Below are positions 5,054 to 13,452 of a stretch of 64,000 nt of DNA, one piece after another. Both the position numbers and the translations under genes were made by a program. Position 1 is the first letter of the stretch. Each line of letters begins with the position of its first letter. A model generated the notes under the pieces. That model saw only the letters and a program-made list of their open reading frames with translations. It was not told the DNA's origin and made no database searches. This DNA is from Parcubacteria group bacterium Gr01-1014_8 (GTDB lineage: Bacteria; Patescibacteriota; Minisyncoccia; Phycocordibacterales; UBA2100), in the NCBI GenBank assembly GCA_007376385.1, contig VMGC01000005.1:96001-160000 (forward strand). Direction: 5' to 3'.

Positions 5054-6136
5054 CTACAGTAATCCGCTCAGCGCATCCTGATACGTCTGCACGCATTGCT
5101 TTTTCAGAGTTTCTTTGAATCTTGGTATCTGCGTCGCGAGTTCCGGGTAGTACACGAGCAGCTTGTCAGCAAATATTTCCAGTGAGTGCAGGGCACTCTC
5201 GTGGTCGAAGAGAAGTATTTCCGGTGGAATTGCGCCCGGTCCGAATTCTTGTGCGGTGTCGTGGTCCACAATACTGCAATCCAACGTGACGTTGTGGGTC
5301 GAGAGAGTCTTGTGCGCAATTCCCGCGCGATGCATTTTCCCGACACCCTGTCCCAGTTCTTCAGCGAACCATTGCGCGTACTCTCGGACATTTGTCACGG
5401 TCTCGTTCTCCATATTGATAAAATCGATCGCATCCTCGATATCTTCCCTGCCTTCAATGTCTTGCACGCGCGTCTTTATGCCATAGGCGCGTATTTCCAG
5501 GGCCGGCTCGAAGTTTTCAGGCAATATCCCATGCTTTCGGATTTGCGTATCGCCCCTTGGTATCTCGTCAACAGGCACAAGCTTCATACTTCCATCTTCC
5601 TGTCGTATTCCCACTTCTTTCAGCTGCAGGACGCCAAGACATCGGTGCGTACGTATGCCCAGCTCAGCAAACTTTTCTGCCATGTTGGCGTCGTACTCTG
5701 CCCACTTTTTATCAAGCAGGCCATCAACATCTTGAACGTCGCTTCCAGCCCGTGCTTCCCAGGGGAGTATGTCGCCGGTGCGGCGCGAAAGATGCACAAG
5801 TCCTTTGATATCGATGTCGCGATAGATGCGTCCCGTGCTGTCGGTGATGTATGCCTCGCCCACATCGCCGCTTCTCCTGTGACGTTCGCGTTTGCCGACG
5901 CGAAGACCAGGCAGCGTTTCGCCGTGCATTGTCTCTGCAAACTTTACGATGATTCCCAGCGGACTTCGCTCGCCCTTTTTGACGGGAAGGGGAGAATTCA
6001 TTTTGCTCGGGTCCGGTTCCCACGTACATTCATTGTCTGCCTGCACTGTCTGCATCTCAATTCGTCGGTCCCTCATGCCGGTGAGAATAAGCGCTCCGCC
6101 TGTGGTTTGTTGTTTATGTGGGTTCGGCTCTGTCAT
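5054..6136 (-). CDS. hypothetical protein with a degenerate protein-kinase-like (APH/Kdo-kinase-like) signature
   Basis: 360 aa. The segment HRAGIAHKTLSTHNVTLDCSIVDHDTA resembles the kinase catalytic loop H-x-D-x4-N followed by a DxD/DFG-like region, but the catalytic Asp position is Lys/Thr. Assignment is weak. Confidence 0.45.
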   Translation of the reverse strand: MTEPNPHKQQTTGGALILTGMRDRRIEMQTVQADNECTWEPDPSKMNSPLPVKKGERSPLGIIVKFAETMHGETLPGLRVGKRERHRRSGDVGEAYITDSTGRIYRDIDIKGLVHLSRRTGDILPWEARAGSDVQDVDGLLDKKWAEYDANMAEKFAELGIRTHRCLGVLQLKEVGIRQEDGSMKLVPVDEIPRGDTQIRKHGILPENFEPALEIRAYGIKTRVQDIEGREDIEDAIDFINMENETVTNVREYAQWFAEELGQGVGKMHRAGIAHKTLSTHNVTLDCSIVDHDTAQEFGPGAIPPEILLFDHESALHSLEIFADKLLVYYPELATQIPRFKETLKKQCVQTYQDALSGLL

Positions 6137-9049: not shown

Positions 9050-10861
9050 TTGTGGGATGATGCGCTGATGGATTTTGGTCGCAAGTCAATAGGGGACATG
9101 CTAAACGGGATGGCTCGGTACCGAGTCCCAAAATACCAGCGCTCCTTTACCTGGGGTACAAACCAAGTCTCAGATTTTTGGAGAGACCTTTGTGAAGCAG
9201 ATGAGAGAGAAGGATTCTTTCTCGGGACCATGATATTGCATAAGGATAGAGAGGGGGTAGAGGTGGAAAATCTCAAGAATATTGTTGATGGACAACAGAG
9301 AATGACCGCCGCAAGTTTATTATTGCTCGCATGCAGGAATCACTCGTCAAGAAGGAACCGAGACAGGGCTGCTGCACTTGATCAAACTCTGATGTTTCGT
9401 GATATCGCTACTGGAAGAGCGGAAACGCTCAGACTTGAGGTCGCTCCAGACATTCTAGATGCTTTTCGTCACATGGTGACTGCTAGGCAGTGGGATGAAC
9501 AAACTTTTCCAGACGAAGTAGATGGCCGAGTCGCCAGACGAATAAAGTCTATTTATAAGTATTTCAAGCAGCAGGTAGACGAACTATCAGATGCAGAGCT
9601 CTCGTCCTTACTTAATAAATTGTTGAATTCATACTTTCTTGTGATAGAAATTGAAGATATCACACAGGCTTTTGAGCTTTTTGAACGAACAAATGCGCGA
9701 GGAACTCCGCTGAATGCAGGAGAGTTGCTCAAGAACAGACTGTTTGCAGAGGCGCAGGAGAAAGAAATTGTAGAAGGCGAATGGGAGGAGATTGTTTCTA
9801 ACTCTAATGGGATGCTACTGCGAATGTTGAAGTATTTTGCAGCTCTTAAGCACGGGCAAGAAACGGGTCGGACGGTTTTGTATCGACATCTGCGTGGTCA
9901 AGTTGAATCGGACACACCGAGCCAGTTCATCCACGATTTGAGCGCTTTCTCTTCATATTTTGGAAAGTTCTTGGACAACAAACTTCAAGCCGCACCATTT
10001 ATTGATCGAAATTCTGATAAGTCATTCGAATTTCTCTTCATTGATGAGATTGCTTTTAAAAAGTTTGGTCGCAGCATGAGTGCGATATCTCTTTTTGGTG
10101 TCTACATTGTCCTTCCCGTTGTTTTCGCTGGCCTAAAAGGGCTATCGAAATTGAAAGACAAAAGCGGATTTAGACCCGCGTTGAAAGATTTTCTAAATCT
10201 TCTAGGTACGATGGAGTGTTTCCATTTTATCAATAATCAGATATGTACACGTCCCTCGAATCGTGCCGAGTCACTATATGCAAGTAAAACAAATGTGTTG
10301 GCGACAGCGGAGACATGCGCACAGTTCAGAGAGGTAATAAAGCAGATATCAAAAGGACTCAAGGAGATAAAGGTCGCTAATAAGGAAGAGTTCCTACTTA
10401 ATTTTACTGGACTTTCATATACGAGTCCTGCAAGCGATAAGCCTCTCTTTGCATACGTCTTTGATAGATTTGAATCCTCTCCATTCGCGTCAGCAGCACC
10501 TGTAACCATATTTGATCCGTCAGCTAATTACAGCCTGAACCGCGTATTCGAAGTTGAACACATTACCCCTCGAGCAATGTGGGGCAATTTATATCCGGAA
10601 GATGATTTGGTCAACAATATCGGTAATTTACTCATCCTAACGCAGGAGACTAATAGGCTTGTAGATACCAAACCATTGCCGGATAAGATTCGAATAATGA
10701 AGGAACGAGGCTACGACAATTTAAGTACCGTTCAACAATTTTCTAAAAAGTTCGAGGATAAGGAACTCAAGTGGTTACGTCCGACAGACATAACAGAGCG
10801 ATCTGTCGCAATGGCAGCTCAAGGCTACAGTGATATTTGGGATCCATGGCCGAATGATTGA
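9050..10861 (+). CDS. GmrSD-family type IV (modification-dependent) restriction endonuclease, DUF262 + DUF1524
   Basis: N-terminal DUF262/ParB-like NTPase motifs (KYQRSFTW ... VDGQQRMTA). C-terminal DUF1524 HNH-like motifs (EVEHITPRA ... GNLLILTQETN). The gene looks AT-rich relative to its flanks by eye. Confidence 0.8.
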   Translation: MWDDALMDFGRKSIGDMLNGMARYRVPKYQRSFTWGTNQVSDFWRDLCEADEREGFFLGTMILHKDREGVEVENLKNIVDGQQRMTAASLLLLACRNHSSRRNRDRAAALDQTLMFRDIATGRAETLRLEVAPDILDAFRHMVTARQWDEQTFPDEVDGRVARRIKSIYKYFKQQVDELSDAELSSLLNKLLNSYFLVIEIEDITQAFELFERTNARGTPLNAGELLKNRLFAEAQEKEIVEGEWEEIVSNSNGMLLRMLKYFAALKHGQETGRTVLYRHLRGQVESDTPSQFIHDLSAFSSYFGKFLDNKLQAAPFIDRNSDKSFEFLFIDEIAFKKFGRSMSAISLFGVYIVLPVVFAGLKGLSKLKDKSGFRPALKDFLNLLGTMECFHFINNQICTRPSNRAESLYASKTNVLATAETCAQFREVIKQISKGLKEIKVANKEEFLLNFTGLSYTSPASDKPLFAYVFDRFESSPFASAAPVTIFDPSANYSLNRVFEVEHITPRAMWGNLYPEDDLVNNIGNLLILTQETNRLVDTKPLPDKIRIMKERGYDNLSTVQQFSKKFEDKELKWLRPTDITERSVAMAAQGYSDIWDPWPND

Positions 10862-11321
10862 TGCAGCATTAATCAAACAGAAGACAAGGTACTTACGGGA
10901 CGGCCGGGCCCCGATTCCGAAAAGTGAAAAAATCTCTCGCACGATGAGTGCGATAAGAGCAAAGAACACGAAGCCCGAGTTACTTGTTCGCAAGGTTTTC
11001 CGAAAAGTAGGAATACGCGGATATCGATTGCATTGGAATAAAGTAGCCGGACGACCGGATATTGTGTTCCCTAAGAAAAAAGTCGCTGTGTTTGTTCACG
11101 GCTGTTACTGGCACGGATGTCCACATTGCAAACTTACACTCCCGAAAACGCATCGAGCATTTTGGCGTGCAAAGTTCAAGAGAAACAAGGAAAGAGACGC
11201 TCATAAGACAAAAGACCTGCGGAAATTAGGATGGCGTGTACTTACCGTGTGGGAGCACCAAATAAAGAAAGATGCGGATCAAATCGCTGCACGCGTCGTG
11301 AAGGCTCTTCGTGACGCTTGA
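10854..11321 (+). CDS. vsr: very-short-patch-repair endonuclease Vsr
   Basis: MSAIRAKNTKPELLVRK...GRPDIVFPKKKVAVFVHGCYWHGCPHC matches the Vsr hallmark (FVDGCFWHGH). The start overlaps the GmrSD stop by 8 nt in another frame. The 3-prime end overlaps the convergent MTase gene by 80 nt. Confidence 0.85.
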   Translation: MIDAALIKQKTRYLRDGRAPIPKSEKISRTMSAIRAKNTKPELLVRKVFRKVGIRGYRLHWNKVAGRPDIVFPKKKVAVFVHGCYWHGCPHCKLTLPKTHRAFWRAKFKRNKERDAHKTKDLRKLGWRVLTVWEHQIKKDADQIAARVVKALRDA

Positions 11322-12648
11322 TGCTCTGCAAAAGTGCACGGCCTATTTCTTCAATGATTCCGACGACAAGTGCGTTACCCATGAAGAACGCTCGTTTTAC
11401 GTCGGAAATGTCGTCATATGCGGTATGGCGAGCAGGGAATTGGCATAATAACTCTAACTCTGTTGGGGTAAGTCGGCGGTATTTTCCGGACTTTGTTTTT
11501 ACAACATGCTTGAATCGCGAGGGTGCGGGCCCTCCCTCTCCTGTAATTATCGTGCGGGAAGGTTTATCCAAAGCATCCGGAAAAGTCATTGGACCCTCTG
11601 CGTAGTGATAAGTGAATCCATCTGTCCCATGGCGCTCTTCCTTTTTAGCACCCTTGAGATATTTCCACTCTTTTAGTGAGCCGTTGATAAAATATTCTTC
11701 GGCGACTTTGTGTTCCGGAAGTAGAATATCACCGAGAGTAATGAAAGGGCCACCGTATTTTGGAGTTACGCGAGCGGTTGTGATCCGACCGTCACTCATG
11801 ACCCCAGCATTCGCAAAATCTATATCGTCCGGGAACAATTGTTCAAAGTCTCTCGTTATTCTGACGGGATCATCAGCGACATCGTGTCTCGCGAATCTTG
11901 AAATTTCATCTTCGACTGCGAGTCGTTGCGCGAAAACTCCTTCTTTTGTCAGCCAATTGATCGCGTCAGTCGAACGTAGCGCATTTGCAATACCGGTTCC
12001 ATTCTTGAACGCGAGAATAAAGATCCGGCGCCTGCGCTGTGGTTTTCCGTAATCAGCTGCATTGATAACGCGCCATTCGACGACATATCCGAGGTTTGCG
12101 AGCGAAGCGAGCATGATCGCAAAATCACGACCGCGGGCAGATGCTGGGGACTTTAATAATCGGTCAACGTTCTCTAGGAACACATAGGGAGCAGAGTCCT
12201 TGTGTCCTTTTTCTTGAAGAATGCGATAGATCTGCCACCAGAGAACGCCTTTCTTTCCCTGGAGTCCCGCAGCTTGGCTCAACGTTCGTGCAACCGAATA
12301 ATCCTGACAAGGAAATCCTCCGACAAGAACATGATGGTCCGGGATGTCACCTGTTGCGACGGTCGCGATATCTTGATTACTGTGTCCTTTGCTGCCAAAA
12401 CGTGCCCGGTACACCTCGGATGCGTGCTGGCGTTTCGTTGATGGCTCCCACTGATTACTCCAGATGGTCTCGAATTTCAGACCTGCTCTCGCCGCTTCCT
12501 TTTTTGATGCTTGGTCGAGTCCGAGACGAAATCCTCCCACCCCTGCGAACAATTCAATGACCTTAAGTGGCACCGCTTGTCGATCGTCTTTTTTGAGCGT
12601 ATGTTTGGCTAGTTTCCCCATAGCTAAATCGTACCAAGGAATATCCAT
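11242..12648 (-). CDS. dcm: DNA (cytosine-5)-methyltransferase (Dcm-like, type II m5C MTase)
   Basis: Motif I ELFAGVGGFRLGL, motif IV GGFPCQDYS, motif VI VFLENVDRLL, motif VIII QRRRRIFILAF. The partner of the adjacent vsr. Confidence 0.9.
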   Translation of the reverse strand: MDIPWYDLAMGKLAKHTLKKDDRQAVPLKVIELFAGVGGFRLGLDQASKKEAARAGLKFETIWSNQWEPSTKRQHASEVYRARFGSKGHSNQDIATVATGDIPDHHVLVGGFPCQDYSVARTLSQAAGLQGKKGVLWWQIYRILQEKGHKDSAPYVFLENVDRLLKSPASARGRDFAIMLASLANLGYVVEWRVINAADYGKPQRRRRIFILAFKNGTGIANALRSTDAINWLTKEGVFAQRLAVEDEISRFARHDVADDPVRITRDFEQLFPDDIDFANAGVMSDGRITTARVTPKYGGPFITLGDILLPEHKVAEEYFINGSLKEWKYLKGAKKEERHGTDGFTYHYAEGPMTFPDALDKPSRTIITGEGGPAPSRFKHVVKTKSGKYRRLTPTELELLCQFPARHTAYDDISDVKRAFFMGNALVVGIIEEIGRALLQSIKRHEEPSRRVQRFDPHLSLFGAPTR

Positions 12649-13452
12649 TTGATCAAGATCGAGTTATCCACTGTCTGCCATATGCATAAAAAGTTCATCG
12701 AACTACTGAATATACCCGATCCAAAGATCCTGGAACCCAAAAAAGTGGGACCTAAACGCCTACAGATGGTCAACTTTGCACGAACGCTTTCTAGAGGAAC
12801 CTTAGAAAGCCCGCATGAACACAAGATTTGGAAAGTCAGGGCTTATTGGATTGGATTCCAAAAACCAGGAATTGAGACTGCTGCGGACGCGGAAACCAAT
12901 TACAAAGATGGTACTGTCGCTCCTAATCCTGACGACATGAAGCCCACTATATGGAAGTCGAATAAGATCATTAAAGCACCAGCGTCATTTGAAGAGATTT
13001 TTCACGTTTTTGAAAGACTTTTACGAAATGATGAAGAAAATGTTTTGGAGCTGCTTGCCGCCATCCTTTATAGAGATGCTTATTTGTTGGATTACGAGAT
13101 CAGTGATCAGCCGAACGCTGTCCCCGAATATAGGTTATCCCAAGATATACTTCAGGAACTTGAGAAACCGCTCTTCAGTGTTACTGGATTACCAGCTGAG
13201 GTTTATTTGAAATATTTGCAAATGATCGCATGGAATGAGGACGTCAAATATAACGCCTTAGGTTATAATATTGCGAAAGAGAAGACGGGCAGGCAGGGAA
13301 ATCTATTAACCTACACCCACTTGATTGCTGTGCTGTTAGGTAGGGCGCGATTAGCAAATTTTTGCTACGCATTTGCTCGAAGTGGAGGAGTAGCACCTAT
13401 AACGGGAATTGCTACCTGGGCAGCATTTCCTTGGCTTAGAAATGAGAAGTAA
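12649..13452 (+). CDS. hypothetical protein divergent from the m5C MTase; candidate cognate restriction endonuclease (inference only)
   Basis: 267 aa with no recognisable motif. It is transcribed divergently, with start codons abutting the MTase start, and lies inside the AT-rich defence island. REase function is inferred from the classic R/M/V arrangement. Confidence 0.45.
   Translation: MIKIELSTVCHMHKKFIELLNIPDPKILEPKKVGPKRLQMVNFARTLSRGTLESPHEHKIWKVRAYWIGFQKPGIETAADAETNYKDGTVAPNPDDMKPTIWKSNKIIKAPASFEEIFHVFERLLRNDEENVLELLAAILYRDAYLLDYEISDQPNAVPEYRLSQDILQELEKPLFSVTGLPAEVYLKYLQMIAWNEDVKYNALGYNIAKEKTGRQGNLLTYTHLIAVLLGRARLANFCYAFARSGGVAPITGIATWAAFPWLRNEK

Follow-up and report, generated by a model that had tools for sequence, protein, structure and literature searches.

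Restriction-modification (R-M) systems that read GATC are known with several kinds of enzyme. Sau3AI R-M pairs a cytosine-5 (m5C) DNA methyltransferase (MTase) with a MutH-like endonuclease. Small BglII/BstYI-family enzymes (204–209 aa), which belong to the PD-(D/E)xK class (PF09195), stand head-to-head with MTases of the same family on plasmids pMP21332_4 and pPB01 and in one metagenome locus described below. DpnII and MboI act on GATC alongside adenine MTases. To our knowledge, type II restriction enzymes use only a handful of catalytic folds. R.PabI, a 'half-pipe' restriction glycosylase that recognizes GTAC, is a type II enzyme whose fold lies outside the four classical nuclease superfamilies. 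Here we analyze a locus in a 64,000-nt stretch of Parcubacteria group bacterium Gr01-1014_8 (contig VMGC01000005.1; hereafter the window), in which a Sau3AI-type MTase gene is divergent from an unannotated gene. The 256-aa product of this gene is probably the restriction endonuclease of the cassette; the support is computational and cleavage is predicted.

A probable GATC cassette with an unannotated gene in the restriction slot

The cassette itself is of an ordinary kind, a type II R-M unit with a Vsr repair endonuclease. An initial sequence-only reading had recognized the m5C MTase/Vsr unit, and profile searches agree (PF00145 at E 3e-56 for the MTase; PF03852/TIGR00632 for Vsr). The parts of the cassette are as follows.

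12682..13452, plus strand: candidate restriction endonuclease gene, 256 aa plus stop (GenBank TSC85595.1, 'hypothetical protein')
12622..12681, no strand: probable divergent intergenic/promoter region, between the MTase (likely start 12621) and the candidate (start 12682)
12651..12668, plus strand: conserved 18-nt element GATCAAGATCGAGTTATC, with two GATC sites at 12651–12654 and 12657–12660
12628..12639, minus strand: second conserved element, family consensus ATC[CT]TA[TA]CA[AG]A
11242..12621, minus strand: Sau3AI-type cytosine-5 DNA MTase (PF00145, TIGR00675); GenBank TSC85594.1 gives 468 aa from 12648
10830..11321, plus strand: Vsr very-short-patch repair endonuclease (PF03852/TIGR00632)

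In the mechanism we propose, the genes at 10830–13452 form a type II R-M cassette whose most likely target is GATC. The Sau3AI-like MTase would produce GAT(5mC), and deamination of 5mC would create T:G mismatches for Vsr to repair. The 256-aa protein would cut unmethylated GATC in incoming DNA. Its putative active site comprises E65, D85, E186 and K189, together with K61/K64, D137, D187 and R204.

The candidate is linked to methyltransferases of two chemistries

Linkage to MTases of two chemistries, as found here, is the pattern of restriction enzymes. A scan of one genome per species returned 51 family loci, which we annotated with hidden Markov models. Their hosts span Patescibacteria, Bacteroidota, Nanoarchaeota, Methanosarcinales, Promethearchaeota, Gammaproteobacteria, Melainabacteria and others, so that adjacency to an MTase is conserved across distant hosts. 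An m5C MTase of one orthologous family adjoins the family gene in 35 of the 51 loci, in head-to-head, convergent or tandem orientation, and Vsr occurs in about 17 loci in total. Another 10 loci, comprising a distant branch of eight plus L039 and L051, have an adjacent PF01555 N6/N4 MTase instead. Partners of two chemistries argue against an m5C-specific accessory role for the candidate. The plasmid relatives of the N6/N4 partners were only 26–29% identical and uninformative on the site.

Contig ends cut five loci, and L040 is the sole locus without an MTase. The sequence-only reading had named homologs commonly lacking an MTase neighbor as a finding that would count against a restriction role; with an MTase missing in only 1 of 51 loci, neighborhood conservation favors the role. 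Exact-protein look-up gave five distinct loci, all five with an adjacent m5C MTase.

The restriction slot is also interchangeable. Scanning metagenomes for the 18-nt element returned 80 loci, 21 of which carry the family gene and MTase on its flanks. One match lies at a contig edge, and 57 have neither gene, about the number estimated from chance; these served as controls below. The remaining locus, L144, has the same MTase family at the same distance and across the same GATC-containing element, with a 204-aa BglII/BstYI-family enzyme (5479–6093) in the candidate's slot. This enzyme matches PF09195 in Pfam (1.7e-14) and BstYI in the PDB (2e-4). It shares 47% identity with its counterpart on Macrococcus plasmid pMP21332_4. 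The candidate is unrelated to these enzymes (hhalign 3%). Judged by sequence, a known restriction enzyme has taken over the slot in L144 by non-orthologous displacement. Linkage independent of MTase chemistry and an exchangeable slot are both features of type II restriction endonucleases.

GATC is the most likely site

Four independent lines make GATC the most likely site of the system: the relatives of its MTase, the depletion of GATC in host DNA, the GATC sites of the promoter region and fusions of the candidate family to the Sau3AI C-domain. The first line comes from plasmid MTases that are 41–47% identical to the window-type MTase over ~90% of its length, variable region included. They neighbor Sau3AI/MutH-family enzymes in 6 of 11 loci and BglII/BstYI-family enzymes in 2 of 11, and both enzyme families recognize a GATC core. 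The window MTase matches PF00145 over its full length, resembles these plasmid MTases, again including the variable region, and is thereby of the Sau3AI type, with the GATC target of Sau3AI R-M as its presumed methylated site. DpnII and MboI share this presumed site, and the distant candidate branch also pairs with an N6/N4 MTase, but the DpnII Pfam model is matched by 0 of 66 candidate-family members.

Of the palindromic 4-mers, GATC shows by far the strongest depletion in host DNA. We compared all palindromic 4-mers with their maximal-order Markov expectation and found an observed/expected (O/E) ratio for GATC of 0.48 (z = -21) across 436 kb of m5C-linked loci and 0.19 in N6/N4-linked loci. 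In several 12-kb loci, 30–45 GATC sites would be expected and 0–2 are present. In the window, 192 sites are observed versus 284 expected (O/E 0.68), and GATC is again the most avoided palindromic 4-mer. In an independent sample, 23 metagenome contigs carrying the MTase cassette gave an O/E of 0.57, compared with 0.92 in the 57 control contigs, which are chance matches to the same 18-mer and were counted with the motif masked. The hosts are thus depleted in the presumed recognition site, as for a type II restriction endonuclease, with lineage effects not fully excluded. None of the GATC-containing 6-mers stands out as depleted. The promoter regions run the other way: 20 divergent intergenic regions contain 47 GATC sites versus 5.2 expected.

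Some family members carry the Sau3AI effector domain or have a PD-(D/E)xK partner

In about nine representatives of ~460 aa, a C-terminal domain whose only match is the non-catalytic C-domain of Sau3AI follows the family domain.

Sau3AI C-domain fusions: P0096 (L077 5001–6416), P0074, P0079, P0098, P0101, P0104, P0119, P0149 and P0151

The fused domain matches positions 237–475 of NCBIfam NF040973 (E 1e-19 to 8e-22) and residues 256–443 of PDB entries 2reu/7xm0/4pxg (E ~1e-7). In hhalign comparisons it scores 98.8% to Sau3AI residues 237–468 versus 0.6% to the N-domain. Catalysis in Sau3AI resides in the MutH-like N-domain; the C-domain binds a GATC site as an effector and is itself non-catalytic (bioRxiv 10.64898/2026.04.21.719898). 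Given these roles, the family domain in the fusions stands where the catalytic domain of Sau3AI stands. The L077 cassette consists only of the fusion gene, vsr and the m5C MTase gene. The sequence-only reading had suggested a novel-fold restriction endonuclease or another MTase-associated effector; replacement in the restriction slot, these fusions and host GATC depletion give that suggestion computational support.

A large clade shows translational coupling of the family gene to one for a 200–212-aa protein with a D38...D54-E-K56 motif and a PD-(D/E)xK fold. The clade includes gut Bacteroidales, among them Bacteroides sp. Marseille-P3684 (WP_106484283.1 with WP_106484282.1) and Phocaeicola plebeius. 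The partner has 765 homologs, all unannotated, and also occurs beside the BglII-like enzyme of Psychrobacillus pPB01, where the family gene is absent. We rejected the partner as a BglII/BstYI-type enzyme (hhalign 0.2%, no NCBIfam match), and comparison likewise rejected a relationship between the partner and the fused C-terminal domain.

The predicted fold matches no known nuclease

The candidate has a confidently predicted structure that resembles nothing in the PDB. An AlphaFold2 model built from 15 sequences (predicted local distance difference test, pLDDT, 91.7; predicted template modeling score, pTM, 0.90) shows N-terminal helices, a small four-stranded sheet (45–52, 55–61, 87–92, 95–97) and a seven-helix bundle. 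Foldseek against the PDB returned no match at E<=0.001 (best E 2.4), while a PD-(D/E)xK control protein was readily recognized by the same method. The suggestion of a novel fold therefore holds against the PDB. Profile-profile comparison with the BglII-like, Sau3AI-type, partner and Vsr alignments gave probabilities of <=3%.

Comparison with individual nuclease classes gave the same picture. The model lacks the alpha-beta-beta-beta-alpha-beta core of PD-(D/E)xK enzymes, in which strands 2 and 3 bear D...(D/E)xK. The pattern D85...E186-D-V-K189 superficially resembles the motif of this class, but its parts are spread over 100 residues, the second part lies in a helix and the fold is unmatched. 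For HNH/beta-beta-alpha-Me nucleases there was no Pfam match in 66 members and no structural match; D137-H138 was rejected as an HNH-like motif since the following helix has no conserved ligand and His and Tyr interchange at 138. GIY-YIG, PLD and half-pipe folds and Pfam models were unmatched as well, and the candidate domain is unlike MutH/Sau3AI (hhalign 0.2%, no NCBIfam or Pfam match).

Conservation within the family has a catalytic look. G63, D85 and E186 are invariant in 128 diverse members, and K189 (127), E65 (126) and K64 (125) nearly so. Further near-invariant positions are K61, N82, P88, R131, D137, H138, N185, D187, Y190, G203, R204, N206 and T210. Such a set of acidic and basic residues is typical of an enzyme, and its three or four acids with a lysine suggest metal-dependent phosphodiester hydrolysis. 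The sole conserved histidine, 138, is Tyr in 10 of the 128 members, the window copy included.

A fold unlike that of any known nuclease could also serve another chemistry or mode. The candidate might be a PabI-like glycosylase/lyase, a strand-specific nickase dependent on a second subunit, or an enzyme whose longer site has a GATC core. The exchange of His and Tyr at 138 would suit such alternatives, coupling to a second nuclease in some clades fits a heteromeric or nicking enzyme, and BglII/BstYI-type partners of the same MTase family do recognize longer GATC-core sites. We nevertheless regard an effector of this sort as improbable: depletion is at the 4-mer level with no GATC-containing 6-mer prominent, structural similarity to R.PabI or to helix-hairpin-helix glycosylases was not seen, and nothing points specifically to glycosylase chemistry.

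Weighing the assignment

Several observations weigh against a catalytic, active candidate. It has no recognizable nuclease motif or fold. One homolog (P0040, L080 268–1449) carries a fused LexA-type S24 peptidase domain and stands head-to-head with a fragment of an m5C MTase. The PD-(D/E)xK partner could be another subunit, an independent enzyme or a repair nuclease like Vsr. Part of the GATC depletion could stem from lineage, since many hosts are candidate phyla radiation (CPR) bacteria or Bacteroidales, or from further GATC enzymes in those genomes. In the window copy itself, codon 64 (12871–12873) encodes Ile, a change unique to this copy; 125 of 128 members carry Lys there. The window copy and its clade have Tyr at His138, and Asn206 is Gly in the window copy and Gly or Ser in the clade. 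By these substitutions (K64I, H138Y, N206G) the window copy may be weakened or inactive.

Alternatively, the candidate could be a non-catalytic specificity, effector or regulatory component that binds GATC, for example a repressor at the conserved GATC element, with cleavage left to another protein such as the PD-(D/E)xK partner. That partner is coupled to the family gene in one large clade, a conserved operator-like element adjoins the gene, the candidate matches no known nuclease fold, and fusion to an S24/LexA-type domain is an architecture typical of DNA-binding repressors, resembling LexA/CI. We think such a role unlikely. In most loci, the window included, the MTase and Vsr are accompanied by no nuclease candidate other than this protein. 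Nor does the element depend on the candidate, since L144 has it together with a BglII-like enzyme and lacks the candidate. The Sau3AI C-domain fusions would be left with no catalytic part, since the fused domain is itself non-catalytic and DNA-binding. Some 20 near-invariant polar residues, three acids and a lysine among them, would also be unusual for a regulator.

The substitutions raise a separate question, which concerns the window copy rather than the family. That copy could be a decaying or inactive remnant, with the MTase and Vsr working as an orphan unit. K64I is unique among 128 members, split or truncated copies occur elsewhere (L042, L048, L062), and GATC depletion in the window is only moderate, at an O/E of 0.68. 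Even so, the open reading frame (ORF) is full length with all other invariant residues intact, the promoter element is intact, and no palindromic 4-mer in the window is avoided more than GATC. We find decay doubtful, while granting it real weight.

For the candidate as restriction endonuclease, a further proposal is that its family embodies a new catalytic fold, and here we see the case as evenly poised. The family would then be a modular GATC-cleaving domain, used alone as in the window, fused to the Sau3AI effector domain or with a PD-(D/E)xK partner, and spread across CPR bacteria, DPANN and Asgard archaea and human-gut Bacteroidales, perhaps with a chemistry other than two-metal hydrolysis. 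If true, it would supply a new DNA-recognition and cleavage scaffold for a common 4-bp site, possibly a new reagent, and would explain part of the strong GATC avoidance in these lineages. Defense-system annotation would also improve in CPR and DPANN genomes, where such cassettes now look like orphan MTases.

A conserved element with two GATC sites lies between the genes

Revised gene starts open a divergent region of about 60 bp. The ORF noted in the sequence-only reading (12649..13452, plus strand, 267 aa) exists as the longest ORF from a TTG start. Its product is most likely 256 aa from ATG 12682, the point from which all homologs align; the GenBank product (TSC85595.1, Parcubacteria bacterium Gr01-1014_8) is also 256 aa. 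It is not a chance ORF, having 15 close homologs and at least 467 distant homolog clusters. On the other strand, MTase homologs (n=11) have only 15–21 residues ahead of the PLRVVELFAGVGG motif, which corresponds to the second Met of the window MTase (ATG 12621–12619, minus strand). Nucleotide alignment of the divergent regions places 12622–12648 in conserved non-coding sequence. Position 12621 is accordingly a likelier MTase start than the annotated 12648, and the region between the genes is likely 12622–12681. With starts at 12621 and 12682, the head-to-head arrangement described earlier stands, but the abutting start codons at 12648/12649 do not; they are an artifact of taking the longest ORFs on both strands.

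The 18-nt element in this region is strongly conserved. The window has a single copy, as does each of 16 genome loci and 22 metagenome contigs that carry this MTase family, and every copy adjoins the start of the MTase gene. An alignment of 15 head-to-head loci shows its core, GATCAAGATC[GA]A[GC]TTATC, to be invariant, although the proteins share only ~35% identity and the hosts are distantly related.

Read on the minus strand, the two conserved elements resemble a promoter of the MTase gene. TTGATC is a plausible -35 box and contains one of the GATC sites. The second element holds an extended -10-like sequence, read as TGnTACGAT or TGnTAGGAT, about 7 nt upstream of the second MTase ATG, giving the order TTGATC, 17 nt, TGnTAGGAT, ~7 nt, ATG. 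The position of the -10-like element would imply a leaderless MTase mRNA. A consensus promoter scan of 12500–12800 reported nothing at its thresholds, so the promoter is one that we infer. The two GATC sites probably make expression of the MTase, and perhaps also of the endonuclease, sensitive to methylation. Holding the system's own site twice, the promoter element is a candidate for a methylation-sensing switch.

At their 3' ends, the convergent vsr and MTase genes share 80 nt (11242–11321). Comparable convergent overlaps of 9–126 nt occur in a dozen other loci.

The family is widespread and previously undescribed

The candidate belongs to a widespread family that is previously undescribed. 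A word-indexed search found 15 homologs. An exhaustive profile search raised this to 467 cluster representatives at E<=1e-3, 132 of them at E<=1e-30; counted as clusters at 50% identity, the family thus has at least 467. Hosts include CPR bacteria, small archaea, Bacteroidales and others, and every named member is called 'hypothetical protein'. Members in cultured human-gut Bacteroidaceae (WP_106484283.1, WP_204506856.1) make the family directly testable.

Existing resources offer no name for it. The sequence-only reading had called the protein unannotatable, and the candidate and its profile indeed gave nothing meaningful in Pfam, NCBIfam, PHROGs, PADLOC or PDB sequence searches. None of 66 diverse members matches any Pfam model at E<=0.01. 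A GH5 endoglucanase match (E 0.004) was discarded as weak and spanning one helix pair. Searching annotated plasmids and phages by tblastn with one family member yielded no match, and literature searches on Sau3AI, GATC avoidance, PbrTI and novel-fold enzymes turned up nothing about the family.

Some loci depart from the intact arrangement. Split or truncated candidate copies stand beside retained MTase genes in L042 (5727–6513), L048 (5777–6549) and L062 (6037–6375), and GATC is not depleted in L048 and L062 (O/E 0.88 and 0.91). In L004–L007, a small HTH_3, controller-like protein is encoded directly upstream of the homolog and partner (e.g. L004 7704–7988), in phage-like surroundings.

In the window, another restriction gene lies directly upstream of vsr.

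9050..10861, plus strand: GmrSD-type (DUF262/DUF1524) type IV restriction enzyme, adjoining the R-M unit and outside the unit itself

The GmrSD ORF and the longest vsr ORF have 32 nt in common. With a GmrSD-type enzyme adjoining the R-M unit, the region is a small defense island.
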